From Raillietiella orientalis (taxonomy: Eukaryota): a stretch of 64,000 nt of DNA. How positions within the stretch are numbered: the first letter of the stretch is position 1; each line of letters starts with the position of its first letter. Below the pieces are notes generated by a model, which did not search any database, was not told the origin of the DNA, and saw only the letters and a program-made list of their open reading frames with translations. The DNA lies in NCBI GenBank assembly GCA_036172245.1, contig JAYWIR010000094.1:62001-126000 (forward strand). Reading direction: 5' to 3'. The position numbers were made by a program, and so were the translations under genes. Below, piece by piece: positions 10,401 to 51,139 of the stretch.

Positions 10401-10439
10401 CGTAATATTCAGCCAGTTTCGAAAAGCCTAAGATGCAGT

Positions 10440-10544
10440 TGGTCCTCAGGAACAGGTGTGACCTTGCGCTGCTGCAGAAGATCCACGTGATCTCTGCAGA
10501 ACAAGCGTAAAAGATCGAACAATTCTCCGAAGGGCGGCTATTTA
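10440..10544 (+). mobile_element. Short APE N-terminal fragment (outer nest layer, 5' part)
   Basis: Encodes DLALLQKIHVISAEQA*KIEQFSEGRLF, homologous to DLTLLQEIHVISAEQA in F and V. Confidence 0.75.
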
Positions 10545-12625
10545 TCACCCGGGTGCGCCGAGGCGTTTATTAAAAACTATCGGGGAACAGAGTTCCTGGA
10601 CAACGGGGAAAACAAGATACAAAGGGGGTGGGATCCCCGACACGCAGGTCGGTATGGCTAAAGTCCGGAACGAGAGGAAAACGACCACAAATACACTACT
10701 ATGAAAAATTAAAATAAAAAAAAATATGGTGTGCGGGGGACAGGGGTCTTTGGTGAGTCCGTTCCTTCCTTTGAAAACCGGCGATGGATGATAGCGATAT
10801 CTCTCCTTACGTCCTGTGGCAGATGGGCCCACTCGGTAGCCGACGACATGCTTGCGCTGGCTATTCCGGTGGGCTGACGAACGATGGCCAGCTTCTTCAA
10901 CTCTCGGTGGGCCTTGTCGATGGCGCGGGTGCAACACACGGTTGCAACGAAAGCACACAAAGACAGGCCGCCTGGCGTGAAGAAGCGACGCATCAAGTCC
11001 CTCGCGAAGTCCATCTGGTGCAGGAGAGCTGAGGCCAGCCTCCGCCAAAGTCCCAGAAGGGCACCGCAGTCCAAGAGCAGGTGCGGGAGCGTTTCCACTT
11101 CGCCGCACCGCTTGCAGTTTGGGGAGACAACTCCCCCGGAAACACAGTTCGTCCGCTGGCTGGAGTGAAAACCCCAATGCACCAGCATGATGACGTCCTG
11201 CTTCCACGAAAAAGGGAACACAGGAGTGTTCAAAGAGGTGGGAGGGACCACAAGTTCTTCGAAGGACACACTTAAGTGTTCACTCCACCGAAGGAGTCCC
11301 TTCGAGATGTGGCGAGGCGTGGCGGAGTCTGCCAGCTCGCAAGTCCTAAAGCTGCCAATAGGTCGTGTTGTTCCTGCGATGGTGCAGGAGACCTCCCATC
11401 TCGCTGGTTCGCAGCTGTCATCCCTTGCCCTGAGGGCAGACAGTGCGTCGACGAGAGGGGTGAGGGCAAGGCCGGTCCACTTCTAGCTGCTGCAGACCTC
11501 ATCCACCGTGCAGTACGGGGAGAGGTGAACGCAACGGAGTTCCAGGAGGGAAACATCCTGGTGCTTTGCCCAGCCATGCAACGGTTCCTGCCGCCAGGCT
11601 TGAAAGTTCGTTGGGCGGCAGGAGATCCATTCTTGGGCTGCCAGGAACCGGTAGAGGGGTTTCAAGGGGAAACCGAAACTTGTCGTGGGGTGCTTCGTGT
11701 GCGGACGCAGCGACAGAAGTCCGTCGCTGCAAACGCAGCGCCGCAGGAGCAGGCGCGCAGGAGTGCACCACGGAGTGGACCAAAGGTTGGCGCACATGGC
11801 CAACATCCGAAGCTGCACCTGCAGCTCGATTCTCTCCAGCGCCAGGATGTCTAGGCCAGCATCCCGACGCGGAGCCACCAAGTCTTTCAGGCGGATCCTG
11901 GACCTCGCAGGACCCCACATAGCGTTCCTCAACAGGCTGTGCGACTGGAGCTTCGCCGAGAAGGCGGACGGGCAAACAAAAAACAGGGAACGCAAGAGGG
12001 GGGCAACGAAGTTGTTCCATATCGCGGCCCGCTCCGACAGAAGGAACCTACCATGGTGGAACGGGCTCAGGGCATTCGAAGCCTTCCGAAGGCAGTCCGA
12101 CCACACTTCCACTGGACTGATGTTCCCCAGCGGAACGCCCAGAATTTGGGTGGACGAAGCGGCGGAGATCCCCAGGCGGATCCAGTCGGACTGCCCCTCC
12201 CACGCCGCACCAATAGGTACGACCACGCTCTTGCTCCTGTTTACGCTCATGCTTGCTCCCTGGCAACCATCTCGAAGAAATCCTGAAGACTAGACGCCGG
12301 GTTTGTCATGGGTAAGAGGAGAAGCAGGTCGTTAGCATAGGTCGCGACGGACGGCGTTCCTGGACAAAGGCTCGGCAGGTTGGACAGCGTCAGCTTGTAC
12401 GCCCTCATCACCGACTCAAAGAAGATGCTGAAGAGCAACGGGCTTAAGCTGTCGCCCTGCCTGATGCCCTGCCGCACCGGCACGCCATACACGTGGCAGC
12501 CTCTAAATGGTACGGAAATGAGCGCGTGGCGCCAGCAAGCGCGCAAAAAAGCCACGAGGTGCACCGGGAGTCCGAGCCGTTCCAGGAGCTCCAGCAAGAG
12601 ATCCTGATTTACGCAGTCGACCGCC
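10545..12625 (-). mobile_element. Segment B: 3' half of ORF2 (RT from KAVDCV to C-terminal Cys motif), 3' UTR and AATAAA-hairpin end
   Basis: ORFs 12247-12657, 11483-12250 and 10709-11269: GIRQGDSLSPLLF, YANDLL, CKRCGEVETLPHLLLDC; end motif at 10545-10571. Confidence 0.92.
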
Positions 12626-13869
12626 TTGCGTGCTCCAGGGTGGACGTGTTTTCTCAATGCTTCTCGTGCCAGGAAGTTTCCCCCAGTGCAAGCGTCGTGT
12701 GGTTCGGTGGTCGATCAGGCAGCGATGCCTGACGCGACCACCAGGGATGGCCAGAAGGCAGCGACAACGCCGCCCCCAGAGGCGATGGAGAGCCAAAGGG
12801 CGGCGGCAACGTCGTCCCCAGAGGCGATAGGGCGCCAGGGGGCAGCGGCAACGTCGCTTCAAGAGGCGGTGAAGGTGGAAGCATCCGCCCCCACAGAAAC
12901 GGTCCACGCTGCAGCGCGGGCGTGGAGCGCCGTTGTGTCGGCGCCATCGCCTGCAGCCGCGGCGGAATTGTCAGCCTATGTGGAGGAGGGGTATAACCCC
13001 TCATTGTTCTACAAGGTAGGCAATCTCTATTCTTTAGAGAGCGCGCGCACCTTCTGGAAGGGCATGCGCGCTCTCGATGTGAAAGAGGAGGAGCTCAGCG
13101 CTATGACCATCCGCAGCGGGGGTCAGTACCTTGAGGTCATCTGCAAACAAGCAGAGCTGGCCCAACGACAGCTTAAAACCCCCGTGGTGATGGGGACGCG
13201 CAGACTCCTCCTCACTACGGCGGACCTCATCATGGTGGTCCACCTGTTAGGTGTTACCGAGCGGATGCGCAAGGAACAGGTTCGCGCCGCGCTGGAACAA
13301 TTTGGAACGGTCCACGCGCAGTGGACGAAAGTTAGTCCTTTCGAGGACTACACGGGGCTGTAACACGGTCTCACGGCTGCGCGCGTGACCGTTCGGGAGA
13401 ACTGCACACTTCCCCACAAAGTGGTAGTCGAAGGCGAAACCGTCGACCTCTGGTATGTGGGGAAGCCGAAATACTGTGGCTTCTGCAATACGTCGGGTCA
13501 CTTTAAAAAGAGGTGTCCCAACGTGCAGTGACAAGTATGCGGCACAATGGGTCACACGAGGGAAGTGTGCCTAAAAGCAGCAGTGCGGGTGGTTTCCAAG
13601 AGAAACCTTAAAAAACGTACCCGGCTTCTGCAGAAAAGGCTGGCGGCCAAAGCTGCTGCGAAGGCTGTGCCACCCGCGCCCAAGGCCCAGGCCGCACCCA
13701 AGACTTCGGCGAACAACGCCGAACAAGTCGAGGGAACAAGCCAGGAGCCTGGATGGCAGGTGGCTACGGCCAAAAAATCAAAGAAGGAAAGGAGGATGGA
13801 GAAAAAGCTCGCTTGCCGCCAGAAAAAACAGCAGGCAAGCGAGCAAATTAAAGAATGCAGCGTTCTCGT
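12626..13869 (+). mobile_element. Segment B': 5' UTR and ORF1 (H-type gag-like, two CCHC knuckles, disrupted), 3'-truncated
   Basis: Very close paralogue of H (34370-33170); CGFCNTSGHFKKRC and a second knuckle; in-frame stops; probable ATG at 12725. Confidence 0.9.
12757..12880 (+). repeat. Imperfect 42-bp (14-codon) tandem repeat x3 in the ORF1 N-terminus
   Basis: AATTPPPEAMESQR / AAATSSPEAIGRQG / AAATSLQEAVKVEA; only two units in H. Confidence 0.8.
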
Positions 13870-16312
13870 TTATTACCCGGTTGCGCCGGGACGTTTATTA
13901 TAATATCAACTGGGAACTGTGTTCCCAGGCAAGAAGAACACAAAATGTGAAGTAGATTTCCCGGAACGCAAATCAAGTACACTGAGATTTCGGAACGGGA
14001 GGGGGTGGGACAATAAATAACTAAATTGGGTGGGAGGGCGGGGATAGGGGTATACAGTCTAACTGTTCCTATTCTCAGAACCGGCGGTGAATGCCGCCGA
14101 TCTCCATCCTCACTTCTGCTCCAAGATGTGGCCACCCGGCAGCCATTTGCAGGTTGCAGGCTGCGGTGTCGGGGACCGATGTTGGGACTGCTCGCGTCTG
14201 CAATACGTGACGAGCTCTGACAATGGCCCGGACGCAGCAGATGATTGCGACGACCGCTCCAAGAGAAAGATCGCCACGCGTGTGGAAGCGGCGCATCCAA
14301 TCCAGTGCGGTGTGTCCAGGGTGCAGGAGCGCTGAAGACAGCCGCTGCCACAGATCCTGGAGGACATTGCACTTAAACAGCAAATGCGAAAGCGAATCCA
14401 CCGCTCCGCATTGGGCACAGTTCGGGGAAGCAACTCTCCCGGAAATCAGGTGCGCTTGCTGGTTGCAGTACAAACCCCAATGCAACAGCAGAAAAGCGTC
14501 CTGTTTCCATCGAAGGGGAAAGAGAGTCGCGTCCAAACACGCAGAAGGGACCACAAGTTCATCGGTGGGCACCACGAGGAGCTCACTCCACCGGAGAAGT
14601 CCCTTGGCCCGAAGGCGAGGAGTGGCAGCGTCTGCCACTTCGCAATTCCGCCAGCCGCCCAGCAGTCGGGTTTCGCTTGAGATTTCGCAAGCAATCTCCC
14701 ACCTCGCAGGCAGGTCACTGTCGTCTCGCACCATCAGTGCACACAGTGCTTCGGCGAGTTGCGTAGCAACTAGGCGTGTCCACTGGTCCTGGTCTTCCAG
14801 CACCTCCCCCACAAGACAGTATGGGTAAAGGTTCACGCAACGGAGTTCCAAACGGGACACATCCTGTTGCGCAGCCCATGACGATAAGGCTTCTTTCCTC
14901 CAGGCGTTCAAGTTCGTCGGCCGGCAGGAGATCCACTCATGATTTCCCAGAAGCGTGGCGAGCTGCTTCAAAGGGAAGCCGAATCCTCTCCGTGCGCGCT
15001 CCGTGCGCAGATGCAACGAACGTAGTCCGTCGCCACCCGTGCAGCGCTGCAGCAGCAGCCGCGCTGAAGCACACCAGGGAGTAGTCCAGAGATGCGCACA
15101 AAGTGCCAGCATGCGGAACTGCACTAGAAGTCCGATCCGCTCCAGCGTCAGGATGCCCAATCCTGCATCCCGTCGAGGAGCCGTTAAGTCCTTCAGGCGT
15201 ATCCTGGACCTCGCCGGTCCCCACTGGGCGTTACGCAACAGGCGTTGCGCCCGGCGCTTAGACGAGTAGGAAGGGGGACAAACAAAAAAGAGGGGACGGA
15301 GGTGGGGGGCAGCGAAAATGTTCCACACGAAGGACGGTTCCTACAGGAGAAACCTGCCGCCTTGGAACGGGCCCAGAGCAGTCTCGGCCTTGTGAAGGCA
15401 GTCCGACCACGCTTCTGCTGGACAGAAGGCGCCCAATGGAACGCCGAGGTACTTCAAGCACCTGCCCGTGGGGTTCCCCAGGCGGATCCAGTCGGAATGC
15501 CCCTCCCACGTAGAGCCAACCGGTACAACGGATTTTGTCCCGTTGACGCTCAGGCCCGCTCCCCGACGAATGAGCTCCAAGAAGTCCTCGAGCCTGGACG
15601 CCGGGATGGACATGGGCAGCAGCAGGAGAAGCTCGTTAGCATAGGCGGCCACAGCCGGTGTTCCCGGGCAGGAGCTAAGCAGGCTGGCCAGCGTCAGCCT
15701 ATACACCCTCAGCACTAACTTAAAGAAGATGCTGAAGAGCAGGGAGCTTAAGCTGTCTCCCTGCCTGATACCCCGCCGTATGGGAATGCCGTACACGTGG
15801 CGCCCGCTGAAAGAGATACAGCATAACGCGTGGCGCCAGCAGGAGCGCAAGTAGGCAATGAGGTGCGTCGGGAGGCCTAGGAGTCCCAGAAGCTCCAGAT
15901 GGAGGTCCTGGTTTACGCTGTCGAACGCTTTACAGAGATCGACGGGGACCGCTAAGGCTCCCGGCGTTCCATCGTGCCTTGAACACCGCCGCTTACCTTT
16001 GTAAGCGACGATTTCGGCTGCCTAATTCTGCTGCGCCACGCGCTGCTGCAACTGGAACCATGTTCGCGCGAAGAAGAGTTTCGCGTCCATGGACCGCCCC
16101 GGAACAGCATACGTCTGCTCCGGACTTATCAAGGACTCCGCGATTCTTCCCAGGCGCGCGACCCACAGCTTGGAGAACAACTTGACGTCCGAACTCACCA
16201 AGGTGTTTGGACGTCAGTTGCTAACGAGGCGCAAATCGCCGCCTTACGGCAGCAGCCGCACCTTTGCTGAGCGGAAAGAAGCGGGAACATCTCCCGTCTC
16301 ACGCATCAGCGT
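13870..16312 (-). mobile_element. Segment C: 3' part of ORF2 (RT from LMRETGDVPASF), 3' UTR and AATAAA-hairpin end
   Basis: ORFs 15341-15850 and 14075-15328 (GIRQGDSLS, YANE, CAQCGAVDSLSHLLFKC); end AATAAACGTCCCGGCGCAACCGGGTAA at 13873-13899. Confidence 0.92.
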
Positions 16313-16450
16313 CGGTCGCGTACGGATGTGCTTTTGCGTCGCTCCGCGGTAGATTGGCTCTTGTGTGTTTTTGTTCTGCTGTGCTTCTGTGCTGCAATAA
16401 GAGCAAAGAAGAACATCAGCCGCAAGAAGGGAACCCCACCTGCTCCTGAG

Positions 16451-17805
16451 ATGGCTGCTTCGGCTGCTAGCAAGAAGCCTCTGTGTTCGCCGACGGCGAG
16501 GACATTCGCCCAGGTCGCTGCCCTCGCGGCTACGATGGGACCTTCGCCCGACAGCCCTGAGCTTCAGCCGTATGTAGCAAATGGCTACACGCCTGCACCC
16601 AGGTATAAGGTAAGTGTCCTTATGCCTGAGGGGGATGGGCGCGAGTTTGGCCAGGAACTCCAACGGATTGGAGTTCAAAAAGTCCAACTTGAGTCCATGA
16701 TGCCCATGAGTGGGTGCAGCTACTAAGAGGTGTCCAGTAAGGACGCTCTCCTTACGCAGCGTTTGCTGCACACGCCGCTGCTCATTCGTGGGCAGGAAAT
16801 ACTCCCTGTCACAACAGACCAGTCGTTCGGTGTCCGGCACAGTGGAGTGTGTAAGGGCCTTTCGGACCGCCAGGTCGTGGAGGCCCTTGAAAAATTCGCT
16901 ACCGTTCACGCGCTTTGGAGGCTGCCAAACCCTGCTGAAGGGTTCGAAGACCACCACAGCGGGCTCGCGCAAGTGCGAGTGACGATGACGGATCGCCGTG
17001 CAATGCCCACGCGACTGCAGGTGGATGGAATGACCGTCCGCCTGTGGTTTGCCAGGCAAACGCTTGCGTGCGCGGAATGCGGGCAGGAGGGTCACCGCAT
17101 TACGATGTATCCCTCGGCCGCCTGCCGTTACTGCCACGAGCACGGGCACAGTAAAAGAACGTGCCCGGAGCTCCTTTTAAAAAACGAAAAGCGCAGAAAC
17201 GAATCGCGTTCCGCACTGCGGAATAATCGCCGCGAATCGAGAGAAAGAAACATCAAAGCTCCGAAAAGCGTTACGAAAACCGCGACCACGTACGTGCAGA
17301 AAACTGTTTCTCGCTTCCACAAAGAAGGGGTGGAAAAAACACAAAAAAACTCGTCGCGGCAAAGGCTCCGGCTATCGACCCGAAGGAAGCTCGCGAAGAA
17401 TGCGACCTTTCTACGAGACCTCGCAGCCAATTGTTGAATGCAGGAGACATTGCGCCGGAGGTCAAAAAGCCTCCTACTGTCGGCATCACGACCGCGAAGC
17501 CTCGTACCAAGGCCTCGACGAGCGCCGCGGAATGCGGTCGGTCGCCCGAAACGGGAAAAACGAGCCCGCGGGCAAAGAACACCGCGCCGTCTGAAGCTAC
17601 CGCGGCCAAGGAGCCCCAAGCGCCGAGTGCCGCGAAGAATCAGCCGGCAAACCCGCAGTCCTCGCAAGCGGACGCAGCGCCTACTGCGGCCAAGGAAGAA
17701 ACTGCTAGGGAGAGCACAACCGCTACAGCAGTGCCCCCAGCGGTCGCAAAGGCAACGCGCGAACCCTCCGATCTGGAAGAGGCAGCGCCTCTCGCGATCG
17801 CTAGG
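16451..17805 (+). pseudogene. E ORF1, N-terminal part (gag-like, CCHC knuckles)
   Basis: RTFAQVAA, VHALWRLPN, CAECGQEGH, CRYCHEHGHSKRTC; stop near 16724 and a frameshift near 17.3-17.4 kb. Confidence 0.85.
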
Positions 17806-17939
17806 TTTCCCCAAGTCCCACAGGGGGTAAGGTAAGTTTATTTTTCTATAAAAATGCAAAATTTACATTCGCACTCTCATTCACTGAATACAAACATTTT
17901 GCATTTGGGGGTCCTTGGGTTGCACTAGAGTTCTGCTTT

Positions 17940-20900
17940 TCAGAGGGGAATTCCAGCTGGATGGTCCCGGGCGTCGTCCTGGATCCTCTTCAGGATGAAT
18001 CGGTACGTCCAGGCGTGGATCTTCCCGCAGTTCCTGATGCCGATTTCCCTCTTCAAGAGCCCTTGTAGGATCTCCATCGGTGGTGCGGCTCTCCTGGCTT
18101 TCCTCATTTTCCACCACCGCACAAGTATGGCGGTGATGAAGAGGGCTATTGTCGTCCTCACCATGGGATTGTAACAGGGAACATTACCATCCCCATGAAA
18201 CATCCCGGCGAGGATCTCCATAACGGACTTGTTGGTAAGTCCTATGATCCTTTTCAGGATCAGCCAGTCATGCAGCAGTGTGGGACACGTCAAGACGTGA
18301 AGTCTCGTGTCGTCGTCTCCACATGCTGCGCAGTCTCGGTCTTCCCGTCTTCCTGTGAAGTGCTGCAATCGGGACCCACTCTGGATTCCTCCGTGATAAA
18401 ACATCAGGAGGTCATCCTGGGTGCCCATCGGAAGGTCACTCCTCCAGAGCGTCGTGCCGATCGCTAACAGGTTGAACCGTTCACTCCCGTAGCGTTCGGT
18501 GGCTTCCTGGAGGGCACTGGTGTCACGGTCGTTTTCTTGGATAAGCCTTCGGAGGTTTGTTCTGGTTACCCTCGACCATGCGAAGTCGTTGTGGTTGAAC
18601 CACACTTCGCGGGTCCTGTGGGTAAACCTTCCTAACATCATCTCTGTATACCGAAGTATACGTGTTTGATGTAGGTAGCCTCCTCGCCTCCACTCCTGGA
18701 TTTGCAGTAGGGTAACTCTGGACCGCTGGTTGATCCAGCTTCTCGTGTCCGGCGGGACAGGAAGCAACCAAGGGATCACCAGGATGGACTCGTCCTGCCA
18801 GAGTTCCCTGCTTCGCGGCACGATCTTGATTTGGTGCTTCCGCACCAGCCGTTGCTTCCTCCTCCAGGTCGGGTCGATTGTTATGCATTCCCCTACTTTG
18901 CCTAGCAGCGCAGTCATCAGGCCTTTCGAGTTGTTAAGCAACAACGCGTAGGCCCTGTGCGCCGCATACGGCCAGTCATCCCAGTAAGTGGCCATGTCCA
19001 GGATGTGTCGGGTATCCATGATTTCCATGGAATGTGCAAGCGACTTCATCCCGGAACCGCCTTCTTCCCTGGGACGACACAGGGGTTTCAGTCTTACTCT
19101 TGGACGATAGTGGCCCCAGAGTGTTTTTCTTTGCAGCTTGTCGAACTCCCTAGTAGTGTCCTTGTTCATCCTCGCGAAGGCCGCCCCGAAGAGCACTTTC
19201 GGAAGGGGTACTCCGTTCCATATGTTGGCCTTTCGCTTCATCCCAAGGTTCGTTCGGGTGTACTTGGCTGCTTCCTTGGCCGTTTTCCCCAGGATTTCCT
19301 TCCACAGCAGCTTCGACGCAGAGCCGTCGCCGATGTAGACTCCCAGGTACTTGGCCGTGTCCACCGTACGGAATCCACTACCCGTTAGAGTGGAGAGATC
19401 CAGTATTCCGACGGGCAAAAGCTGGCTCTTCTGGGAATTGATTTTTAAGCCCAAGCCCTGTTCCATCTGGTCCACCATATCCAGAAACGCACGCTGATTT
19501 TTCTCTCCCTTGATGAAGAAGAGTAGATCATCAACGTATGCCAGATGAGTAAGACGCTGGCTATCGATGGTAATCCCGCTTAGTCGTCCGCTCTTCTCGA
19601 TAAAGGACGACAACGCCTCCATATAGATGACGAACAGCATCGGACTTAGCGAGTCGCCCTGTCGGACTCCTTGTTCCATCCTGATTGCTGCCGTCTCCTG
19701 GCCGTTGATTTTGATCCGGCAGTACTGGTTCTGGAGTACCGCCCTCACGAAGTTGCTGAAGTGTTCCGGAAGCCCTATCTTCTCCAGAACCTTCAGCAGC
19801 ATCCCGTGGTCGATGGAGTCGAAGGCCTTCTCCATGTCAGTGAACACCAGCACCAGGTTCTCGCCGACGTATCGACTGAGTTCAACAGTGGCCTGGGCAC
19901 ACTTGACATTGTCCGACATGTGTCGTCCTGGGACTGCACATGTCTGGACCGGAGAGATCAGCCTCGACATGACCTTGCCTAAGCGGTTGGACCAGATCTT
20001 CGCCAACCACTTGGCATCGGAGTTTAGAATCGAGATTGGCATCCATTGGGCGATCTGGGTAGAGTCGCCTCCTTTCGGCAGCAATCTCATCCGACTCTCG
20101 TAGAAGGACTGAGGTAGTCTGCCTTCTTCCCGGATGCAGAGGGTCAACTAGTGGAACAAGCGCAGGTAGGCGTTCAGGTACCGCTGATAGTGCGTGATGG
20201 GTACACTGTCAGGGCCCGCTGCCACGTCCTTGCGAAGTTGCCCAAACGCAGTCTTCACCTCTTCTTCGGAGAACTCCTCCTCCAGTCTGTTCCGCTGGAG
20301 GTCGTCGATCCTCTTCTCAAGATAGCTCAAGAAGGCCTGTTGACTAGAGCGACACAGCTGTTGTCGCCTGAAGTGTTTCGTGTAATGCCTGTGAAAGGCA
20401 TCCACGATGTCCTCAGACGACTGTCGCTTTTGGCCGTCGTACTGGATGCAGAAGATATCTGTTGCCAGATTTCTCTTCTCCAGCACGCCGACTTCCCCTT
20501 TCATGTTATTGAGGACGTACCGACTCTCGTACTGATCGAAGTACTTTGAGAGGGAGCGATCTTGGATGTTCAGCTCCCGGTACGCCTCTTGCCTCAAGCG
20601 CCTATCCCCGAACTGCATGTTTGCAAACAGGTGTATCCTGTGTTTCAGGCTGTCTCAGTCGGCGACTCTTCGGATTGTTGTTGCCCTCAGAATCGCCTCC
20701 AGGACAGCCTGATGTCCGGGATGGGTTTCGAACCAGGCGGGCATGCTGATGAGCGCTGCCCTGGTGCCTTGCCTCCGCCGAGGATTCTCCGTTCTTAGGG
20801 AAAACCGCACCAGGGGGTGATCGGACACCGTAGTCATAGTGTCGCGAAACCCCTGGATACGGTTCCTAAGTTCGGTGCTGTGCAGGACGTGATCGAATGG

Positions 20901-21457: not shown

Positions 21458-21470
21458 AAAAGGGGAAGAC

Positions 21471-23258: not shown

Positions 23259-23392
23259 CCTGGCAGCTGGTCTTGCTGCACGGGACCACTGCAGGTCTTT
23301 TGCCGCGATCTCCTCGCCGCTTCTTTTTTTTTGTTTCTTCTGGAAAACTTCCCCTCTCCGGGCACACACGAGCACAATTAACTAATAAAGTT

Positions 23393-28004: not shown

Positions 28005-28008
28005 GAAA

Positions 28009-28553: not shown

Positions 28554-28785
28554 TTTACACCCGGGTACGCCCGGGGCGTTTATTTTTTAAAAAAAAGAAA
28601 AAAAAAAAAACAACTCTACATCCGCGGTACAAGGCCCCGCTCACGGCCATATGCACTGGACCTGCCGGGACGCCGGGACGCAGCCCAGCGTAGCGTTCCT
28701 CAGCAGCGAAGGGGGATGGGGATAAAACCAAAAGAAAAATAAAAAACATAAACAGACAAAAAGAAGTTGGAGGGCAGGGAAGGGA

Positions 28786-31700: not shown

Positions 31701-31925
31701 CCCATCTCGAAAATTAACCGGGAATGGTCCGACAACGTTGACGCAACCCTCCCCCGTTTGCCGACCCGTGAACACAGGTCAGCGTCGAGGAAGACGTGGT
31801 CGATGCTGCGGACCATTCCCCTCTCACCTGCGAACAAGCTGCGCGCACGCATGGCGGCGCACAACTCGTTCATCGCGTTCACCTGTGTTTCCGGCTCACC
31901 TGTCAGCAGGCGGAGATTGAAATCC
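28786..31925 (-). pseudogene. G ORF2 lacking the APE N-half; frameshift near 29875; YAND instead of YADD
   Basis: ORFs 29618-31930 and 28786-29871 with all RT motifs and CARCGERESLPHLIVDC. Confidence 0.92.
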
Positions 31926-31940
31926 CTCAAGCTGCCATCC

Positions 31941-32876
31941 CTATTCGCCTTCCACCGTTTCAGAAGGTTTATCCTCCGGCTTACGCGCCGGAGGTTGAGG
32001 TGTTGGCAGCTTGTGCTGGCTCTTTTCTACTTTAGGTCTAGAGACCTTTGAAGCACGTTTCCCCTGCGCTTTTTTCGCGGCAGGGGGAACCGGGGTGGGG
32101 CGTTTGGGACACACGCGCCGAACGTGGCCCCGCTCCCCGCACAAATGGCATTGTATATTGGGACACCTTTTACGTAAGTGTCCCACGGTATCACAATGCC
32201 CGCAATACCGGGGCTTCCCTACATACCACAGGTCGACGTTTTCTTGCGCCACCTGTAGTTTGTGGGGAAGCCCACAATTCTCCCGTACGGTCACCCGCGC
32301 TGCAGCCTGCCCACCAAAAAGGCTATCGAAGCCGTCGAAAATGGAGGGTTTCGGCCACAGTGCGTGCACCTCACCGTACTTTCTTAATTCCTCACCAACC
32401 GCTGACCGCGTCATGCGGCTGGTGATGCCAGTCATGTGGACCACCACGGAGCGGTCCATTGATACTGGCAGGATCTTTCGGCCGTCTACGTTCAGCGGCG
32501 CATGGATTAGGCGGTGAGCCAAGGTGACATCTTTGCAGACCACCTCGACCCGCTGCCCGCCGCTGAGGACGGAGAGGCCGTCCAGATCCTTCTCAGTAAC
32601 GTTCGCGTCCTTCAACGCTTTGCTGAAGGCGCGCGCTGTCCGGCCGTCGAACAAGTTGCCTACCTGGTAGACAAGCGATGGCTTGTACCCGGAGGCCTTG
32701 TATGCGGCCATCTCCGCCATGGCTTCTGCGCTGGGCGCGGCCACCATGGCGCTCCATGTCCTCGGCGTGGCCGGGGATGATTCCGGGGCGGCTGCCCCTG
32801 CTCCAGTAGGCTGTGGGGGCGAACTAGCCTCCCCCACTCCCACCTCCATCGCGGTGTCCTCTGGCGTCGTGGCCAT
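31941..32876 (-). pseudogene. G ORF1 (gag-like, two CCHC knuckles), C-terminally truncated
   Basis: MATTPEDTAMEV.., CGHCDTVGHLRKRC, CHLCGERGHVRRVC. Confidence 0.9.
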
Positions 32877-32951
32877 TGGACACCGACGATGTACACAAAA
32901 CACCACACAGAAGAAGAAGCGCTTTCCTACTACTCTTTGGGGAGTGAAGGA

Positions 32952-32962
32952 AAAACACGTCC
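32952..32962 (-). promoter_or_regulatory. Conserved 5'-terminal motif GGACGTGTTTT (putative internal promoter element; type example)
   Basis: About 13 nt inside the TSD-defined 5' end of G; variants at 12642, 16324, 34357, 43245, 54095, 56415, 63670, 63948. Confidence 0.6.
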
Positions 32963-32975
32963 TCCTACTGGCCGC

Positions 32976-34370
32976 GGAGGGGGCTGGCTGCAACGAGGCT
33001 GGCAGCTCCTCCGCGGCTCGCGCGAAGGCTACGTCATCGATGGTGGTGTCGATGACGGACGCCGCCGCCGGCTTGCTCCCCTCGCTGTTGACTGTGTCAA
33101 CAGAGATGAGGTCGTCGGTAGCGGCGAGTTGTTTCCGGCAGCGTTCGACAACATCGAGAACGCGTTCGACAACGACGCTGCATTCTTTAATTATTGCGCT
33201 ATCCTGCTCTTTCTTCTTCTGTTGGTAGGCGATTTTCTTTTTCATCCTCCTCTCCTTCTTTGATTTTTTGGCCTTTGTCACTTTCCACCCAGTCTCCTGT
33301 TCGGCTCCCTCAACTTTTTCTGCGTTGGTCGCCGGGGTCTCGGGTGCGGCCTGGGTCTTGGGCGCGGGTGGCACTGCCTTCGAGGCAGCTTTCGCCGCCT
33401 GCCTTTTCTGCAGAAGCCGGGCGCGTTTTTTAAGGTTTCTCTTGGAAACCACCCGCACTGCTGCTTTCGGGCACACCTCCCTCGTGTGGCCCATTGTGCC
33501 GCATACTTGGCATTGCACATTGGGACACCTCTTTTTGAGGTGGCCCGACGTATTGCAGAAGCCACAGTATTTCGGCTCCCCCATATACCAGAGGTCGACG
33601 GTTCCGCCTTCTACCACGAGTTTGTGGGGAAGAGTGCAGCCCTCCCGAACGTTCACGCGCGCAGCAGTGAGGCCGTGTGGCAGCCCCGTGTAGTCCTCGG
33701 AAGGACTTACTTTCGTCCACTGCGCGTGGACCGTTCCGAACTGTTCCAAAGCGGCGCGAACCTGTTCTTTGCGCATTCGCGCGGTTACGCCTAACAGGTG
33801 GACCACCATGCTGCGGTCCGCCGTAGTGGGGAGGAGCCTGCGCGTCGGCATCACAACGGGGGCTCTAAGCTGTCGTTGGGCCTGCTCTGCATGTTTGCAG
33901 ATGACCTCAACGTACTGACCCCCGCTGCGGATGGTCATAGCGCTGAGCTCTTCCTCTTTCACATTGAGAGCGCGCATGCCCTTCGAGAAGGCGCGCGCGC
34001 TCTCTAAAGAATATAAATTGCCTACCTTGTAGAACAATGAGGGGTTGTACCCCTCCTCTACATAGGCCGACAATTCCGCCGAGGTTGCAGGCGATGGCGC
34101 CGACACAACGGCGCTCCACGCCCGCGCTGCAGCGGGGACCGATTCTGTGGGGGTGGATGCCCCCACCTCCATCGTTTCTGGGAGCGACGTTGCCGCCGCT
34201 CCCTGGCTCTCCATCGCCTCTGGGGGTGACGTTTCCGCTGCTCCCTGTCCATCCCTGGTGGTCGCGTCAGGCATCGCTGCCTGATCGACCACCGAACCAC
34301 ACGACGCTTGCACTGGGAAAGACTTACTGGCACGAGGAGCACTGAGAAAACACGTCCACCCTGGAGCACG
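32976..34370 (-). mobile_element. Segment H: 5' UTR and uninterrupted ORF1 N-terminal two-thirds
   Basis: First half of the 810-aa ORF: RAWSAVV, YNPSLFYKVGNL, CGFCNTSGHLKKRC, CQVCGTMGHTREVC. Confidence 0.9.
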
Positions 34371-36484
34371 CAAGGCGGTCGACTGCGTGGACCAGGAGCT
34401 CCTACTGAAGCTCCTGGAACGCTTGGGATTCCCGGTCTATTTGCTGACCTACCTGCGATCCTGCTAGCGCGACGCGCTCATCCAGATGTTTTTTGGTGGA
34501 CACACCGTGCACGGCGTACCAGTGCGACGCGGCATACGGCAGGGAGACAGCCTGAGTCCCTTGCTCTTCAGTACCTGCTTCGAGTTGGTACTGAGAGAGT
34601 ACAGGGAAACTCAAGCACACCTGCCTCGAGAATATCCCGGTATGCCCGCGGTGACAGCATATGCGGACGACCTACTGCTGCTGCTCTTTATGTCCATTCC
34701 GGCATCGGCGGCCGAGGAGTTCCTCGACCTGTTAAGTCGGGGAACCGGACTTGAAGTGAACAGGGCGAAGTCGTCCGTCATGCCAATCGGTGCGGCGTGG
34801 GCAGGGCAGCCGGACTGGGTCCGCTTGGGTATCCCCACGATACGGTACTTCAGGTACCTCGGTGTACCAATGGGTGATTATCTCCCTTCGGAAGGGTGGT
34901 CCAGGTGCCTTCAAAAGGTAGAGACGGCGATCGGCCCGTTCCAAGGCGGTAGGTTTTTCCTGCCAGAACGGGCCGTGGTGTGGAACGCAATCGCAACGCG
35001 CCTCCTCCGTACCCTGCTTTTTGTTTGTCCTACCACCACAGAAACTAAAAAGCAGACGAAGAACTTACTAAGGATTGCCCTGTGGGGAAATGGGTGGGCC
35101 GGATTCCGGCTTGAGGACTTGAGCGCTCCGCATAGGGATGCCGATCTCGGCCTCCTGATGCTAGAGTGGCTGGCGCTCCAGCTCCAGTTTCGGTTACTCG
35201 CCCTAGTGGCGAAATATTGGAGTAGCAGTTGGTGCGAGCCCGCACGTCTCCTCGTCGTGCAGGCTACAGGCACGGTGGGACTGTCATCCTACTTTGCGCT
35301 CCTTCGTCGCCGCCAAGTCGGTCACTGCGGGCTGCAGCTGCGAAGAGTGGCTGACCAGATCAGGAAGAACGCGGAATTGCTTTGCTGTCGCCAGGTTAAC
35401 GGACCTACATGGCTGCAGGAATCGGTTCAGACGTGGGCAAAAAGCAACCAGCAACGCACCGAAGAAGGGCAGAGACAATTCTTCGCCCGTAATGACCGCC
35501 TGACCCTACGGGAGGTCCTATACAACCCCCAAAAACAGGCGTGGGCAAGAAAAACTCCCCTCGCTGCAATGCTTATTCCGCTCACGGAACATTTAAAAGC
35601 AACACTGCTGCGAAATTGGATGTTTACGTTAAAATCTCCGTACGGAGAAAAAGATCGGGGAATGGAAAACGGGAATTCTCTGCGATGCTGCGGCCCGGAT
35701 TACCACCCCTATTGGACTTTCGCGCTGGGGCGAGCTGCTGAATGTTCCGCTGGAACAATTAAAGTGGCCCTCGGTGCTGATGAACCCTCCACCCATCCCT
35801 TAAAATGGCAGGAGTCGGCGCTATTGTTGCTGCATTGGGGACTCCCCTGCAACGCCCGCCGACACCATTGGACCTGGGGAGCGGTGAGTCCTAATTGTGC
35901 GAGGTGTGGATAACGGGACTCACTCACTCACGTCCTTTTGGATTGTGTGGCTCTCCGGCCCCTTTGGAACCGTTTTGCCGCGGCATTCGGTAACCCCTGT
36001 GGCAACCCCAGAGACGCAATCAGATCCCTCTTCGTTTGCGACGCCCTTCGGCCCTCGGCCTCGTTAGCAGCTCTGTGCTGCTTTCGCGGGATCGTCGCTG
36101 CATGGAGCAAGGCAACGAGAGGACCACGCGATAGAGGTGCCGTCCAGTGCGCAGCCGAATTTATGAGGACGGCGACAGGATAGACCCATCTGGATTTAAA
36201 CATCCAAAAAGAGCTTGCCGGCATCCTGCAAAGGATGTAACCGTCCCACAGCAGACTGTGATCCCTTCTCGTGCCCCCCAGATCTTGATTTTATATATTT
36301 CTTTTTGTTTTATATTTTGTTTTGTCCTTGGCCCCTCTGCTGTCGTGATGGACCGTTCCGCAATACGAACCGATGACCCGGCAGATTTAATTTTGTATAC
36401 CAGTGCGTGAACGGACCACCTGGTCAGATACCAACGTTTGTTTTATTCGAAAGAATAATAGCCCCGGCGCAACCGGGTGAAAAA
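34369..36484 (+). mobile_element. Segment I: 3' half of ORF2 from KAVDCV, 3' UTR, hairpin end
   Basis: ORF 34486-35913 (GIRQGDSLSPLLF, YADDLL, CARCG); end at 36454-36484. Confidence 0.92.
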
Positions 36485-38928
36485 CGAGCTCCCGAACAAT
36501 TAAGGTCTGGAGATGCTGCCGGTGGTGCTCCGCAGCCACCGCATTCCTCAACCAGTCGGCCGGCAACCTCCAGACGTGCGTCAGAAGGCCCTTGCCTGGC
36601 GGGAGCAACTCGAACTCGAGCCTTTAGTGGTCGGAAAGCTCGGACGGCACAAAACCTCTTCGACCCACCCGACAATGCAGATGATCGTCGAGGCACACAT
36701 GGTCCGGCAAAGCAAGCATTTCGGGATGGTCGGCTAGCAAATTCAAGGCGTGCACGGACGCGCACACCTCGTTCACCAGCCGTTTCTCCCGCCGACGGCG
36801 AGACTCCTCGGATAGCGCGTGGACGTTGAAGTCCTTGGCTACGAGGTGAGCCACGTCGGGGCCGTAGTTGCTGAGCCAGCGGTCGCGCAGTCTCTCGGAA
36901 AACTCCAGTTTCTCGGTTTGACGCGTGGAACCGCACAGCGCGTACACGTTCGTGACGACAAAGTTGATCGATACGGACCACTTCAGGACAAGTTGGCCCA
37001 CACGATTTTCCTCGTCGAAACAAACGCTCCGCACCGCTCCTGTCACCCTGCCCCGGTCAAAGAATGCGACTCCGCAGGTATTCTGGGAACCCGACATCCA
37101 ATGGAGCGTCCCGCCTGCGCGAACTCGCAGATGGGCCGCTTTCTGCTCAAAGAGTGCGTGAATCTCCAGCAGCAGGGCCAGATCAAAGTCGCGCAAGACG
37201 TTGACAACCAATCGCCTCTTCTCGTTGTCCTGCAGCCCGTTGACGTTCCAACATGCCACTCGGACGCGACGGAAACAACCGAGACCGCGCATTGCTGCTA
37301 CGGACATGGAGATGCGTTCCTTGCCCCTTCCGGCGAGGCATCAGCCGGGAGCGCGGCGGATGAGGTAGCGCAAGCGCTTCCTGTCGCCGCCGCGCCGCTC
37401 GCGGCTGGCTCGGTGGAGTCGAGGACCATTGCCTCGGGCTCCGAGGAGCATCAGGAACCGTTCGCAGCATCAGGCTCTTGCCTGGCAAGTTTTGGGTTGC
37501 GCGCAGCCCTGGCCTTGACCGGGGCTTGGCGAGCCTTAGCGCTGCCGTCGGACTCCACCTCGGAGTCCGAATTCCGCGCGCGCGGCGGGCGTTTCGCCTG
37601 CCTCTTTTTTTGCTGGCAGCCCGGAGCTGGTGCAGCACTCTTAGAGGGTGCCTTCGTCGCCGATCCCCCTTTCGGGGTCACGGCTTCGGCAGCTCCCCTC
37701 TTGCCTCGGTTGTTTGCGACGGCGCGCGCGGCGGCAGCAGAGGCTTTTTCTTGCGCCTTCCTTGGCGCGCGTGGCTGCCTCTTCACCCGCCTACCTTCTT
37801 GATCGGGAAGTGGAAAGGATGGCGCGGTTTGCGCTCCTTTCTCCCGACGAAGGTCCAGCCATCCTCTCCGCTTTCAGGGTTTCCACGGTTGGGCGCGAGG
37901 GCTTCCAGGGTCCTTCGCATCCTTTCCAAGGCCTCGGATACGGCGATGGAGGCCAGTGTCTCCTTCGCCACTTCTGCCTTCGGCACCTGCTTACCGGAAG
38001 GTGCGGGCAGAGTAACGGGATTCTCGGGGGTCGCGCGTGGCTTTGCAGCCTTTGCTGGCGTTCGGCCTGCAGTGGCCAACTTGCTTGTCGCGGGGAAAGG
38101 GGCGCGCGACTTCTTTTCGGACGCTCCGGTGGACTTCCCGGGCGTGCCACCGCTATTTCTCTCCGGAGCGAGAGCAAACGGAAGCGGCGGTTTTGCAGCC
38201 TGCCCGATGTTATCGGCGGGCTGGGTCGCTCGAGGCTTTACGGAAGCAGCTTTCTGAAGCTTCTTGTCCTTTCGCGCGGGTGTTTGTGGAGCATTGCTCC
38301 GGGAATCGCCCGCGCAAGCGGACTTTTCACTTCTTCGCTGCGAATCCTCGTTCGCGCCGAATTTCTTCCTTGACGACGAGGTGGATGGAATCCGCGCGGA
38401 CGGCGATGTTTTGGGGAGCTTTCTCGCCCTCCTTTTTCGTTTTAGCTCGGCGCACTCGTTAATCGAGTGGCGCAGCAGCTTACAGTGTCGGCAACTGCGT
38501 GTTGGGCACTTCCGCGAACGGTGGCTCTCCTTCTTGCAGTTGCCGCAAGCAGGGGTTGGCCCGGCAAACCGGAGAGAAACGACGACGTCACCGAGGAGGA
38601 TTTGCGAAGGCATAAGCCTCCGGTCGTCCATGGTGACGCGCGCAGTTTCGAGTCCGCAAGAGAGGTGCGCGACTTTATTGATCAAATTCGCGCGCCTCCA
38701 CATTGCGTGCACTGTGGCGAACGCCTCGAGTTCAACAATGATGTCGCGGTCCGTGATTCTCGGCCGAATGCCCGGGAGCTGTACTACAAACGATTGGTCC
38801 AGGGCCGACCGGACGATCTTCTTATCCTTGATTTTCAGGGGCGCTCGCAGTAGGCGCTAGACGAGGGCTGCATCCTTGCAGTGCACCTCTCAATGGCCTA
38901 CCGCGCTCACTGGCATAAGTGCCAGGAG
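36485..38928 (-). mobile_element. Segment J: 5'-truncated E-type ORF1 + APE
   Basis: ORF 37783-38712 (CGNCKKESHRSRKC, CRHCKLLRHSINEC) and ORF 36624-37307 (CWNVNG, DFN, DHV, SDH). Confidence 0.9.
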
Positions 38929-40903
38929 ATCGTCCCTGCTCTTTAGCGCCTTTTTCGAATTAATGCTGAGAGAGTACAGGGAGACTGGCGCATCTGCCGC
39001 GCGATTGTCCCGGTACGCCTGCGGTTTTGGGCATACGCGGACGATCTTCTGCTGCTGCTCCCTATGTCCTCCACGGCTTCGGCGGACGTGGAGTTCTTCG
39101 ACCTGCTGCATCAGGGAGCCGGACTTACGGTGAACAGAGCGAAGTCGTCCGTGATGCCAGTTGGTGCGGCGTGGGCAGGGAAGCAGGACTGGGTCCGTTT
39201 GAAAATCTTCACGGTGAGGTAATCTAATTACCTTGGTGTGCCGTTGGGAAACTACCTCCTGCAGAAGCGTGGTCCGGCTGCCCCCAGAAAGTAGAAACGG
39301 CGATCGGCCGGTACCGAGGTGGCAGGTTTTTCCTTCCTGAACGAACCGCGGTTTAGAACACGTTCGCGGCTCCTTTCCTCGGCCCATTGCTTTTTATTTG
39401 CCCCCTCACAGAGAGGATTAAAATGCGGAAAAAGAACCTCCTCTGTATCGCCCTTTGTGGCAAAGGGAGGGCCCGAGTCCGGCTTGAAGACTTGTGCGCT
39501 CCACGCAGGGACGGTGGACTTGGTCTCCTGACGTTGGAGCGCATGGAGCGACAGCTCCAATTCAGAAAACTTGCCCTTGTGGCAAAGTTTTGGACAGCAC
39601 CCTGGTGTGCAACTGCAAGACTCCTTGCTCACAGGGCAACCGGCTGCTTCGGATTGACTTCAATCCTGGTAGCCAACGAACGCAGCCTGAACCATTGTGG
39701 TTATCAGCTGCGGGATTTGGTTGCCCTGATGAGAGACAACCGTTGGATCTCCTGCATCCCAGCGGACTGGACTACCTGGCTTCAGGAGTCCGTTTCCGCA
39801 TGGCCGAAGATCAATGGCACCAGCGATGAGGACTTCTCCCGCCTCCGCAAAGGGAGGCACGCTGGTCAGCCACTCCAGGAGATCGCCTCCAACCCACGGA
39901 ATCTTCTGTGGGCTTTCTTTACCTCCCTTGCCCCTGTGCTGCCCTCCCTCAGGAAAGTTCAAGACAGCCACCAAAAGGCTTCGTAGTTAGTGTCCTGCCT
40001 CATCGGAGGCAGGAAAAATTCACTGAAGGCGTGGACGCCGATGGAACTAGCGGACGCTAGTACCCCGAGTGTCCCTCCGAACGGACGTTCACGCTGGGGC
40101 GCGCTGCTCGGTATACCTCCAAAGGAGGTGGAGTGGCCCCCAGCGTCATGATACAACGGCACCCTTCCCCTGCAGTGGCAGGAGACGGCGTTGCTTCTGC
40201 TCCACTGGGGACTTTTAAGCAGAGCACGCCTGTTTCCCTGGACAACGGGAAATGTGGATGCTAGTTGTGCAGAGTGCGGGGAAAGGGAGACCTTCCCTCA
40301 CTTGATTCTGGAGTGTGTTGCCCTCCGCGAAATGTAAGACAGACTCTCGTCGATCCTCAACATTCCTGAGGGTGACCCGAAAAATTTATTCAGACGCCTC
40401 CTGACGCAAGACGGCTTGCCAGCCTCCGCGAGCGTAGCAGTGCTCTACTGCATACGCGGTATCCTGGAGAAGTGGACCGCGTCTAGGAGAGGAAGGACCA
40501 GCCGGAATGCCATCCACTGGGCTGCGATCTCCTTGGAGAAAGCGTGCCGTTGGCGCCGACTTCGAAAACATTTGCCTGCACTTGTTCGCATCCGTGACCG
40601 GATGCAAAGGCCTGCTCACGGCGCACCGTGATCCCCTCCCTCCCTCTTCCTCCCCAAAAACATTGCCGTCCAGACGTTTTTCTTTTTTTTGTTTTGTTTT
40701 CTTTTTATTCTTCCCGCCTCGGCGCCAGTAAAGGACCTTATCGGCCTCCGGGTCGGTAAGGACAAGTGCTACTGAACTTCTCTACTGAACTTCTGACGTC
40801 CTAAAAAAAAAAAAAAAAAAATTTTAACAACAAAGACCTTATTACAACATTTTGTAATCTCAAAATTTTAGTAATAAAAGCCCCGGCTTACCCGGGTTAA
40901 AAA
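38929..40903 (+). mobile_element. Segment K: degraded 3' half of ORF2, 3' UTR (13-bp tandem duplication 40769-40794, A-run near 40803-40820), hairpin end
   Basis: LLFSAFFEL, YADDLL near 39033, CAPRRDGGLG, CAECGERET; end at 40873-40903. Confidence 0.9.
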
Positions 40904-51130: not shown

Positions 51131-51139
51131 GCCGCCTCC

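Follow-up and report, generated by a model that had tools for sequence, protein, structure and literature searches.

In some algae, LINE clusters that target themselves are believed to form centromere-like regions; Zepp elements carry poly(A) tails and are characterised by a single cluster on each chromosome. As far as we are aware, the target choice of such clusters and its effect on the resident copies are poorly known. In cell-culture and genome surveys, deletion of target DNA upon L1 insertion is a minority outcome that affects arbitrary targets, and independent insertions of the site-specific LINEs (R2, R1 and Tx1-type) are known to reuse exact target positions.

In the portions of the literature on which we draw, Zepp and ZeppL are L1-clade LINEs that form self-insertion clusters in green algae, with tandem arrays made mostly of 3' ends and a Zepp GC content of 61% versus 53% in Coccomyxa (PMC3446292, PMC8226300). 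For L1, the parts used here of a preprint (PMC11702581) present twin priming as established and report that target-site deletions occur at 5'-truncated insertions. Human TE-in-TE insertions display hotspots and an orientation bias that are attributed to intrinsic sequence features, and L1-into-L1 insertions a 2.2-fold sense bias (21,559 vs 9,899; Table 3), in the sections of Levy, Schwartz & Ast (2010, PMC2836564) considered here.

We describe a locus of Raillietiella orientalis (assembly GCA_036172245.1) where nested members of one LINE family span ~50 kb of a 64,000-nt window, the window being the whole stretch analysed (contig JAYWIR010000094.1, positions 62,001 to 126,000, forward strand). 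Like Zepp and ZeppL as portrayed in the portions cited, this LINE accumulates in its own copies, in a GC-rich cluster of tens of kb within a lower-GC genome (here 55-61% vs ~42% GC). Unlike Zepp in those same portions, the strands alternate, 5' and 3' parts are equally common, no tandem array is formed, and the elements finish in a hairpin and a short A-rich tail. The likeness to Zepp is one of arrangement, the sequence link being a weak match (28% identity, covering 31% of ORF2) to an RT protein of Chlamydomonas, which is the best named protein match of the intact ORF2 described below.

As in L1 insertion-mediated deletion, target DNA would be lost at the 5' junction of target-primed reverse transcription (TPRT), apparently with no target-site duplication (TSD) and with filler or microhomology at the 5' junction, but here the loss would be the rule for antisense insertion into relatives, full-length guests included, and would recur at repeated codons. 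Hotspots along the target element and an orientation bias recall the human TE-in-TE insertions of the sections cited, whereas the bias here is ~6.5-fold antisense (13 vs 2) and goes together with a gap in the host. Identical target positions are reused by independent insertions, as in the R2, R1 and Tx1-type LINEs; unlike these, at least 7 sites are used, no motif common to them was recognised, and the target is the family's own coding sequence. Self-nesting LINE clusters as such are already known (Zepp), and it is the antisense polarity and the junction hotspots that look to be new. In the literature searched we found no report of antisense self-nesting LINEs with host deletion, which may still exist elsewhere.

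Coding content and natural ends of the elements

Element E carries an intact ORF2 of 1178 aa (24066-27602), with Pfam matches to Exo_endo_phos (residues 25-233, E = 3e-11) and RVT_1 (residues 474-716, E = 7e-17), and RVT_1, Exo_endo_phos and zf-RVT are all present in the Atlas clusters nearest to it. An ORF1 with CCHC zinc knuckles sits 5' of ORF2 (zf-CCHC matches with E = 2.6e-4 for the G/H ORF1s and E = 2.3e-4 for the D ORF1), and ORF1 homologues were mapped across the window. By these predicted domains the cluster elements are APE-type, L1-like LINEs, combining a CCHC ORF1 with a putative APE endonuclease (EN) and reverse transcriptase (RT). A protein search with E ORF2 returned 11 matches, all 23-28% identical, and a metagenome scan with the same query gave 92 pattern matches, none of which was confirmed.

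The natural 3' end of the family consists of AATAAA, the hairpin CCCCGG..CCGGGT and 4-7 A-rich nt, and is matched at 10 sites in the window with two or fewer mismatches, with degenerate copies at N, O, V and A1. The natural 5' end is GGACGTG, present at 7 sites in the window. Both motifs define the element ends independently of the nest model. The 3' poly(A) tail of an L1-like LINE is absent from these ends, and the A runs at 28589-28611 and 40803-40821 lie inside 3'UTRs rather than at element termini. By eye, degenerate 13-19-nt repeats that may be TSDs flank H and D and none flank E, the ends being blurred by divergence.

Order, relatedness and decay of the fragments

Fragments were located by tblastn with E ORF2 and ORF1 queries, which reproduced the positions and strands of a preliminary description of this DNA. 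Between 10434 and 40902 their order is f+ B- B'+ C- E5'+ D- E3'+ F- H- G- I+ J- K+, followed by L and a further chain (aa positions are ORF2 residues unless stated):

10434-10544, plus strand: f, EN fragment aa 38-75, the outermost 5' piece (tblastn aa 48-74, 1 stop)
10545-12627, minus strand: B, 3' segment from RT aa 580 to the natural 3' end (tblastn aa 580-1130; 3' motif 10548-10570)
12628-13870, plus strand: B', 14-nt filler, GGACGTG at 12642, 5'UTR and ORF1 up to the ORF1 tail (junctions aligned)
13871-16312, minus strand: C, 3' segment from RT aa 453 to the natural 3' end (tblastn aa 453-1156; 3' motif 13876-13898)
16324-17802, plus strand: E5', 5' motif at 16324, 5'UTR and ORF1 (by ORF1 similarity), preceded by an 11-nt filler at 16313-16323
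17803 to ~23455, minus strand: D, LINE of another family, almost full-length, lodged within the E ORF1 tail (right boundary approximate)
~23455-28005, plus strand: E3', remaining ORF1 tail, intact ORF2, 3'UTR and natural 3' end (3' motif 27978-28001)
28006-28555, minus strand: F, part of the G/F element comprising the ORF1 tail and ORF2 aa 1-66, interrupted by the 3' end of E
28556-32965, minus strand: H, separate element with ORF1 and an ORF2 lacking EN aa 1 to ~158 (3' motif 28560-28584, 5' motif 32962)
32966-34371, minus strand: G, GGACGTG at 34357, 5'UTR, ORF1 and tail, with a 14-nt filler at 34358-34371
34372-36483, plus strand: I, 3' segment from RT aa 580 to the natural 3' end (tblastn aa 580-1115; 3' motif 36454-36477)
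36484 to ~38905, minus strand: J, 5' segment with part of ORF1 and EN aa 10-280, where the 3' end of I interrupts it at aa 280
~38906-40902, plus strand: K, 3' segment from ~aa 633 to the natural 3' end (3' motif 40873-40896)
40903-43250, minus strand: L, EN aa 15-152, ORF1 and 5' end, antisense host of the 3' end of K
43229-54105, alternating strands: chain M+ N- O+ P- Q+ R- S+ T- V+ U-, in which junction sites aa 66, 308 and 364 recur

The foreign element D has an ORF1 of 636 aa and an ORF2 28% identical to E ORF2, and its left end at 17803 was taken from the loose end of a D-family contig in sequencing run X1. In the relative U (52232-52972), the counterparts of the G tail and F are contiguous, with ~19 nt of overlap. 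A shared 5' truncation of S and N was considered and rejected, their truncation points differing by ~18 nt.

Two features of the preliminary description do not hold. The nested series had been closed at 40903, but the 3' end of K sits in antisense L and the chain runs on to ~54.1 kb, and the DNA left of f at 10434 is non-TE sequence (with only short stop-to-stop ORFs in the ORF list over 1900-10450) and not the 3' part of L, so that the outermost layer is unclosed. H, which had been read as the 5' half of C, is a separate element with 3' and 5' ends of its own, lying same-strand in the ORF1 tail of G/F.

As had been proposed, the fragments are nested consistently, with the younger elements inside. 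Stops and frameshifts rise outward from 0 per kb in E ORF2, H, G and F, through 1.2-1.9 in B, B', C, I and J, to 4.2 in K and 7.2 in L, and E ORF2 differs from the middle layers (p = 0.013). The decay of paired halves is compatible for B'/I (p = 1.0) and B/J (p = 0.68), and the alternative pairing B/L is rejected (p = 0.01). The halves of three layers had further been said to match in subfamily; paired halves never overlap, and one of the layers does not pass the single indirect test. In ORF1, B' and G share 89% identity (dS 0.24; 81% aa identity), whereas I and C, their assumed 3' halves (I for B', C for G/F), are 54% identical over 530 codons and ~69% in the best blastn stretch, so that, mosaic elements aside, B'/I or G/F/C (or both) must combine pieces of different elements. 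The disruption counts of G plus F (0 in 1.5 kb) and C (4 in 2.1 kb) are a weak contrast (p = 0.15), but likewise speak against the G/F-C pairing.

Junction sites, host gaps and competing explanations

Antisense insertion into relatives, as proposed at the outset, is well supported. An antisense relative adjoins 13 of the 15 elements with a natural 3' end (p = 0.0037), and the strand flips at 21 of 23 neighbour boundaries (one-sided p = 3e-5). Guest 3' junctions lie in the host ORF1 tail and at aa 66, 66, 75, 152, 280, 281, 308, 308, 308, 364 and 364, comprising 6 close pairs (P = 0.0006 under random placement). The 5' junctions of antisense guests are found at host aa 371, 453, 580, 580, 580, 633 and 654 (P = 0.002 for the triple at 580), and three B'/G-type 5' ends (12642+, 34357- and ~63955-) are located 10-14 nt from the K of KAFDCV. 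All antisense same-family guests share one polarity, the 3' junction falling in the host ORF1 tail or at aa 66-364 and the 5' junction at aa 371-654 or later. A filler of 10-14 nt is common where a guest 5' end meets the host RT region, and the GGACGTG end is retained by B', E5' and G and, close to the end of the window, by the guests at 63670 and ~63955. Inspection by eye of 13 junctions gave no convincing common nick motif.

Hosts that share a junction site gave dN/dS values of 0.34 (T-M), 0.30 (T-U), 0.31 (M-U) and 0.21 (J-A0), and the endonuclease parts of T, M and U contain no stops. Because of these low ratios and the lack of stops in T, M and U, we regard such hosts as independent copies rather than duplicates of dead DNA, that is, as separate insertions of live lineages.

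Recomputed against E ORF2, the host gaps amount to 386 codons (1.16 kb), ~2.28 kb, 299 codons (0.90 kb) and 557 codons (1.67 kb), in agreement with the ~1.2, 2.3, 0.9 and 1.7 kb reported before. The accompanying statement that every host layer suffers such a loss was too broad: D, a guest of a foreign family, cost E nothing, the E ORF1 tail resuming beyond it, and H, a same-strand guest, left the ORF1 tail of G/F without loss. As to the proposal that guests remove the catalytic region, the junction polarity and the lossless entry of D and H favour it, while the contradicted pairing and four copies with precise internal deletions of similar extent (H, T, X/W at aa 290/1029 and AA/AB at aa 168/691) weaken it. 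Since these four have no guest at the junction, core loss is possible without insertion. From the arrangement of the fragments we infer that the EN-to-RT core of an antisense host was lost at guest integration.

In our preferred reading, to which we give roughly even odds (a probability of about 0.5) on the strength of this one assembled window, the nest is a true one and antisense entry into a relative would remove the host DNA that lies between two distinct sites of junction. The cluster would represent a single, diverse L1-like LINE family expanding by nearly always antisense insertion into older copies of itself. As the junctions show, the guest 3' end lies in the ORF1 tail, endonuclease or linker of the antisense host at a few preferred sites, and the 5' end is joined to the host RT, three guests of one lineage joining their hosts at the identical codon. 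Both junctions would be made during TPRT, with a first nick on the host sense strand in the host 5' third, a second-strand junction in the host RT 0.2-2.7 kb away, and loss at integration of the core between them. Strand asymmetry is a possible cause: along the sense strand, A prevails over T in ORF1/EN and T over A in RT/3', the AT skew reaching +0.13 to +0.20 in long 5' segments (B', E5', F, G, J, L and U), with smaller values for short ones (M +0.07, T +0.05), and ranging from -0.03 to -0.16 across RT/3' segments. An endonuclease that prefers a given strand or sequence might then meet its two sites in separate regions of a relative lying antisense, and homology of the new cDNA to the host may also open the duplex.

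A more specific version, which we offer tentatively and with considerable doubt, is an integration mode reserved for relatives, in which the newcomer would enter backward, nick at a few ORF1-tail/EN sites, make its second junction at fixed RT positions and excise the core each time. One lineage would always use the K of the KAFDCV active-site motif for the second-strand junction, and the guest-free deletions could be traces of attempts that failed, or copies that arose from gapped hosts.

Rather unlikely, though best placed among the rivals, is a nest that is only partly real, with gaps that stem from a tendency to internal deletion plus later rearrangement; the flanks of a guest would often be different elements, same-strand neighbours would collapse by recombination, and inverted ones would survive. 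The guest-free deletions span a similar extent, the G/F-C and B'/I pairings are incoherent with each other, the chain is far longer rightward than leftward with many fragments partnerless within the window, and a hand-made non-crossing alternative (f/M, B/L, B'/K, C/J) is equally good geometrically, its C/J pair also being compatible on decay (p = 1.0). However, such an origin leaves unexplained why host DNA stops exactly at natural guest termini, why 3' junctions are all in the host 5' third and 5' junctions all in the RT, why guest flanks are always same-strand and in 3'-part/5'-part order, and why identical codons are reused in independent hosts. Nor would deletion after insertion be expected to spare the guest 5' end, which the guests listed above have kept.

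Twin priming we judge improbable. The head-to-head junctions would be 5' inversions produced by a single retrotransposition event from one RNA, with far less host loss, possibly helped by pairing of the host top strand with the RNA. Its geometry fits (a natural 5' end, a short filler, and an opposite-strand 3' segment starting in the RT), as it does for twin-primed L1 with its head-to-head opposite-strand pieces and its filler or microhomology at the junction, and recurrence at one RT codon is as expected of a pause site. Yet a one-RNA origin of both B-B' and I-G predicts that B and I should be about as similar as B' and G, and the observed values are 53% vs 89%. The joined pieces are thus of different lineages, and their breakpoints would lie kb apart, whereas internal breakpoints were within 1-10 bp in 32 of 32 L1 inversions in the parts of the preprint used here (PMC11702581). 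A repeated-event version, worked through by hand, makes E ORF2 the oldest piece, yet it is the best preserved one (0 disruptions over 3.5 kb), and places C in the element of L, which decay rejects (p = 0.018). A homology-assisted twin-priming model needing no deletions, also built by hand, was rejected on decay order.

Copying of composite junctions by descent, through segmental or inverted duplication of already nested blocks, appears very improbable. It draws on 7 junction pairs that align through the junction without offset, on the similar divergence of both sides between the E-F and O-P junctions (75%, 84%), and on R and Z (86%, dN/dS 0.56), but it conflicts with the purifying selection and stop-free endonuclease parts noted above, with the sharp difference between the two sides of B-B' vs I-G (62% vs 89%, breaking at the junction), and with E, which has an intact 3.5-kb ORF and yet differs by ~25% from O. 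A single palindrome or inverted duplication relating 10.5-13.9 kb to 33.2-36.5 kb was rejected, as identity jumps from ~62% to ~89% at the junction. An assembly artefact of this repeat-rich region is equally hard to credit: the only matching sequencing run found (X1, with 16% of the window's words, compared over 10300-20200 through 30200 and 90-99% alike) consists of short-read contigs of a related strain, and no RNA run was among the matches listed, but the copies differ mutually by 10-45%, far too much for collapse or mis-joining, the junctions coincide with natural element ends, and one X1 contig (519 nt, 24 differences) covers 23137-23649, across the D-E junction.

Implications for the family

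If the gaps are unrelated deletions, the locus would amount to an old TE accumulation of the ordinary kind, apart from its unusual bias in orientation. If, as in our preferred reading, antisense entry with core loss is the rule, it would connect the choice of target with strand asymmetry and with the second-strand cleavage of TPRT, would account for the scarcity of intact copies in such clusters, and would provide a case of competition among related elements. Should the mode reserved for relatives prove true, every insertion would put an older competitor out of action and at the same time enlarge the cluster.

Element family and extent of the nest

The sole intact long ORF of the window (24066-27602, 1178 aa), ORF2 of the innermost same-family element E, encodes an apurinic-type endonuclease (EN) and a reverse transcriptase (RT). 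Its nearest language-model clusters carry RVT_1, Exo_endo_phos and zf-RVT, and its closest database proteins share just 23-28% identity with it. Since CCHC knuckles are present in the ORF1s alongside this endonuclease/RT ORF2, the elements are, on sequence grounds, an L1-like LINE family. The DNA has a eukaryotic character. GC content is 54-61% in the TE-rich DNA from 10.4 to ~59.9 kb and again from 61.6 kb, and ~42% in the DNA flanking the cluster; CpG observed/expected over fragments and flanks is 0.75-1.21, mostly ~1. The flanks at 2100-10400 and 59950-61600 (41-43% GC, the latter splitting the cluster at 59.9-61.6 kb) gave no TE protein matches, and no gene was recognised in a plain listing of the short ORFs of the flank.

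A preliminary description had reported an alternating 'Russian doll' of LINEs at 10440..40903, with hosts (the older copies into which guests are inserted) missing part of their ORF1/EN-to-RT region. Searches by tblastn with E ORF2 and ORF1 queries reproduced its fragments, strands and order, and its four gaps were recomputed as 1.16, 2.28, 0.90 and 1.67 kb; this observation is largely right and statistically solid. To it we added two landmarks. The natural 3' end consists of AATAAA, a CCCCGG..CCGGGT hairpin and 4-7 A-rich bases rather than a poly(A) tail; at up to 2 mismatches the motif occurs 10 times, each at the end of a 3' segment, with degenerate copies at the ends of copies N, O, V and A1. 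The natural 5' end of full-length copies is GGACGTG followed by a T-rich run, found at 7 sites by pattern, plus a variant at L. The centre of the nest reads as follows:

16324-17802, plus, 5' part of E
17803 to ~23455, minus, D, an element of another family
23456-28005, plus, 3' part of E
28556-32965, minus, H

D is inserted in the ORF1 tail of E, whose lysine-rich ORF1-tail sequence starts again at ~23470. H, formerly taken for the 5' half of C, is instead a separate complete insertion on the same strand as G and F, which form a single element interrupted by it; in the relative U the G-tail-like and F-like stretches are contiguous, with an overlap of ~19 nt. Nor does the nest end at 40903. 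From a left edge of non-TE DNA at 10434, the chain continues past K as L- M+ N- O+ P- Q+ R- S+ T- V+ U- to ~54.1 kb, after which strict alternation ends (U, W, X and Y are all on the minus strand). The supposed outermost layer, f with K, is not closed, because the 3' end of K lies in L, and L has no 3' partner on the left.

Orientation, gap polarity and junction positions

Strand flips at 21 of the 23 neighbour boundaries between 10434 and 54105 (p = 3e-5). With each natural 3' end in the window taken as one event, there are 15 guests, 13 of which adjoin an antisense relative (B, C, D, E, I, K, N, O, R, S, V, Z and A1; p = 0.0037) and two a sense relative (H and W); when each shared junction is counted once, the antisense share is 8/10 (p = 0.055). 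W and U, which share a strand, stand head to tail at 54095-54146, with ~20 nt separating W's 3' terminus from the 5' terminus of U, an arrangement that sets them apart from the rest of the chain.

All antisense same-family guests have their 3' junction in the 5' third of the host and their 5' junction further 3' in the host, with implied host gaps from 0.19 kb (S in R/T) up to ~2.7 kb. At E, no short duplication of the target can be seen. Neither H, a same-strand guest, nor D, an other-family guest (28% aa identity), is accompanied by evident host loss, and by eye the flanks of each carry a degenerate 13-19-nt repeat.

Junction positions in hosts, in residues of E ORF2

Guest 3' junctions:
C in B': host ORF1 tail
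E in F; O in P: aa 66
B in f: aa 75
K in L: aa 152
I in J; A1 in A0 near 1005: aa 280-281
S in T; N in M; V in U: aa 308
R in Q; Z at 61.7 kb: aa 364

Host starts beside the guest 5' side:
R, beside S: aa 371
C, beside E5': aa 453
B, beside B': aa 580
I, beside G: aa 580
K, beside J: aa 633
Z (minus-strand RT), beside the plus-strand 5' end at 63670: ~aa 654
Window end, B'/G-like minus-strand 5' end at ~63955, 10 nt from plus-strand RT starting at KAFECV: aa 580

The twelve 3' junctions include six close pairs (P = 0.0006 for random placement in that region), and one codon, aa 580, was used by three of the seven 5'-side events (P = 0.002). B|B' and I|G match exactly across 14 nt of filler plus 17 nt of antisense RT, a stretch that includes an F-to-V change seen in no other copy; outside it B and I are only ~62% alike and B' and G 89%, with the change in identity located at the junction. 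No nick motif common to the junctions was found. A0 (plus strand, EN aa 1 to ~281) belongs to a separate small nest at the window start (163-2054); the 3' terminus of minus-strand A1 interrupts it near 1005, at the host position of the I|J junction. At 63670-64000 the minus-strand 5' end (~63955) lies ~285 nt beyond the plus-strand one (63670).

Relative age, pairing of halves and deletions without guests

Decay (combined count of stop codons and frame changes per aligned coding kb)

E ORF2, H, G, F: 0
E5': 1.0
B, B', C, I, J: 1.2-1.9
K: 4.2
L: 7.2

Decay rises outward, so that, as nesting would predict, the inner elements are the younger ones; E ORF2 can be told apart from the middle layers (p = 0.013), although the proposed age gradient does not extend to a resolvable order among the three middle layers. 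Of the paired halves, which are expected to be of like age, B/J (p = 0.68) and B'/I (p = 1.0) are compatible in decay. A pairing of B with L is ruled out by decay (p = 0.01). Relatedness among the halves fits less well: B' and G are 89% identical (dS 0.24), whereas I and C, proposed as their 3' partners, reach 54% over 530 codons, and of the pairs that B, C and I can form none is more than ~71% identical. Therefore either one of the two pairings is wrong or the ORF1 and ORF2 modules are mosaic, in agreement with the doubt already expressed about the C layer.

Clean internal deletions that hold no guest occur in four copies:

31860-32060, minus, H: ORF1 end joined to EN aa ~160
49958-51140, minus, T: ORF1 aa ~200 fused in frame to EN aa 124
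54124-55473, minus, X/W: aa 290 joined to aa 1029, with ~10 nt of filler
58700-59615, plus, AA/AB: aa 168 joined to aa 691

Core loss thus also occurs, or is propagated, without insertion at the junction, and these copies may be non-autonomous deletion derivatives. The earlier interpretation, that antisense insertion removes the catalytic region of hosts, has antisense nesting, preferred junction positions and gap polarity in its favour, and against it the incoherent pairing, these four deletions and the failure to find a common nick motif. We infer that the host gaps arise during integration, a reading that is plausible and partly supported but unproven; deletions unrelated to insertion, combined with survivorship bias, are the strongest competing account, though an unlikely one.

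Several repeats were also seen. A stop-free frame of 831 aa (31941-34436, minus) runs through G ORF1, the G tail, the H 5'UTR and H ORF1 and comprises two tandem ORF1 copies that share ~47% identity. The N-terminal part of ORF1 holds a 42-nt tandem repeat (2.8 copies in B', 12750-12868; 1.9 in G, 34167-34247), and D ORF1 holds 27/36/48-nt repeats at 22957-23168.

Comparison with known systems and a possible integration scheme

All mapping and statistics come from one window. Self-nesting LINE clusters, as seen here, are known from Zepp and Zepp-like elements, which PMC3446292 and PMC8226300 describe as tandem arrays of 3' ends. For human nested insertions, PMC2836564 gives hotspots and orientation bias, with a sense bias for L1-into-L1 (21,559 vs 9,899; Table 3). 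Our full-text literature search returned nothing on LINEs that nest obligately in antisense within their own kind and cost the host its core, though such a report may exist. L1 integration is known to result in target-site deletions and in twin priming (PMC11702581); inversions of the twin-priming type seem to us a distinctly improbable source of the present pattern.

Block duplication has very little probability. Repeated junctions as copies by descent are rejected for the hosts T, M, U, J and A0, where pairwise dN/dS is 0.21-0.34 (dS 0.7-2.7) and the endonuclease parts of T, M and U contain no stop codons; they thus represent separate insertions, whose source lineages were still coding as they diverged. 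For E|F versus O|P, and for R versus Z, dN/dS is 0.5-0.8 on 59-433 codons, data too thin for the descent question. Misassembly is just as hard to credit. In short-read contigs of a related strain (run X1), one contig spans 23137-23649, across the D|E junction, at ~95% identity. Summed X1 contig depth is 31-59 over D (17604-22915), versus 2-30 over other elements, and 0 over 16940-17603 (E ORF1); the D family seems more abundant in that strain, and E ORF1 has no relative there with an identity of at least 90%.

In the simplest scheme of target-primed reverse transcription (TPRT), the host would first be nicked in its 5' third, on the sense strand; the second-strand junction would lie within the host RT region, on the other strand, and the host DNA between the two would be lost. 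Sense-strand AT skew changes sign along the element, from +0.13 to +0.20 over 5'UTR/ORF1/EN in long 5' segments (lower in M and T) to -0.03 to -0.16 in RT/C-terminal/3'UTR segments. The sense strand being A-rich in ORF1/EN and T-rich in RT/3', both junctions in an antisense host hence fall on whichever strand is A-rich at that point. In addition, new cDNA, being complementary to the host sense strand, could open the duplex. As hypotheses, these two features may explain why the gaps are restricted to antisense relatives.
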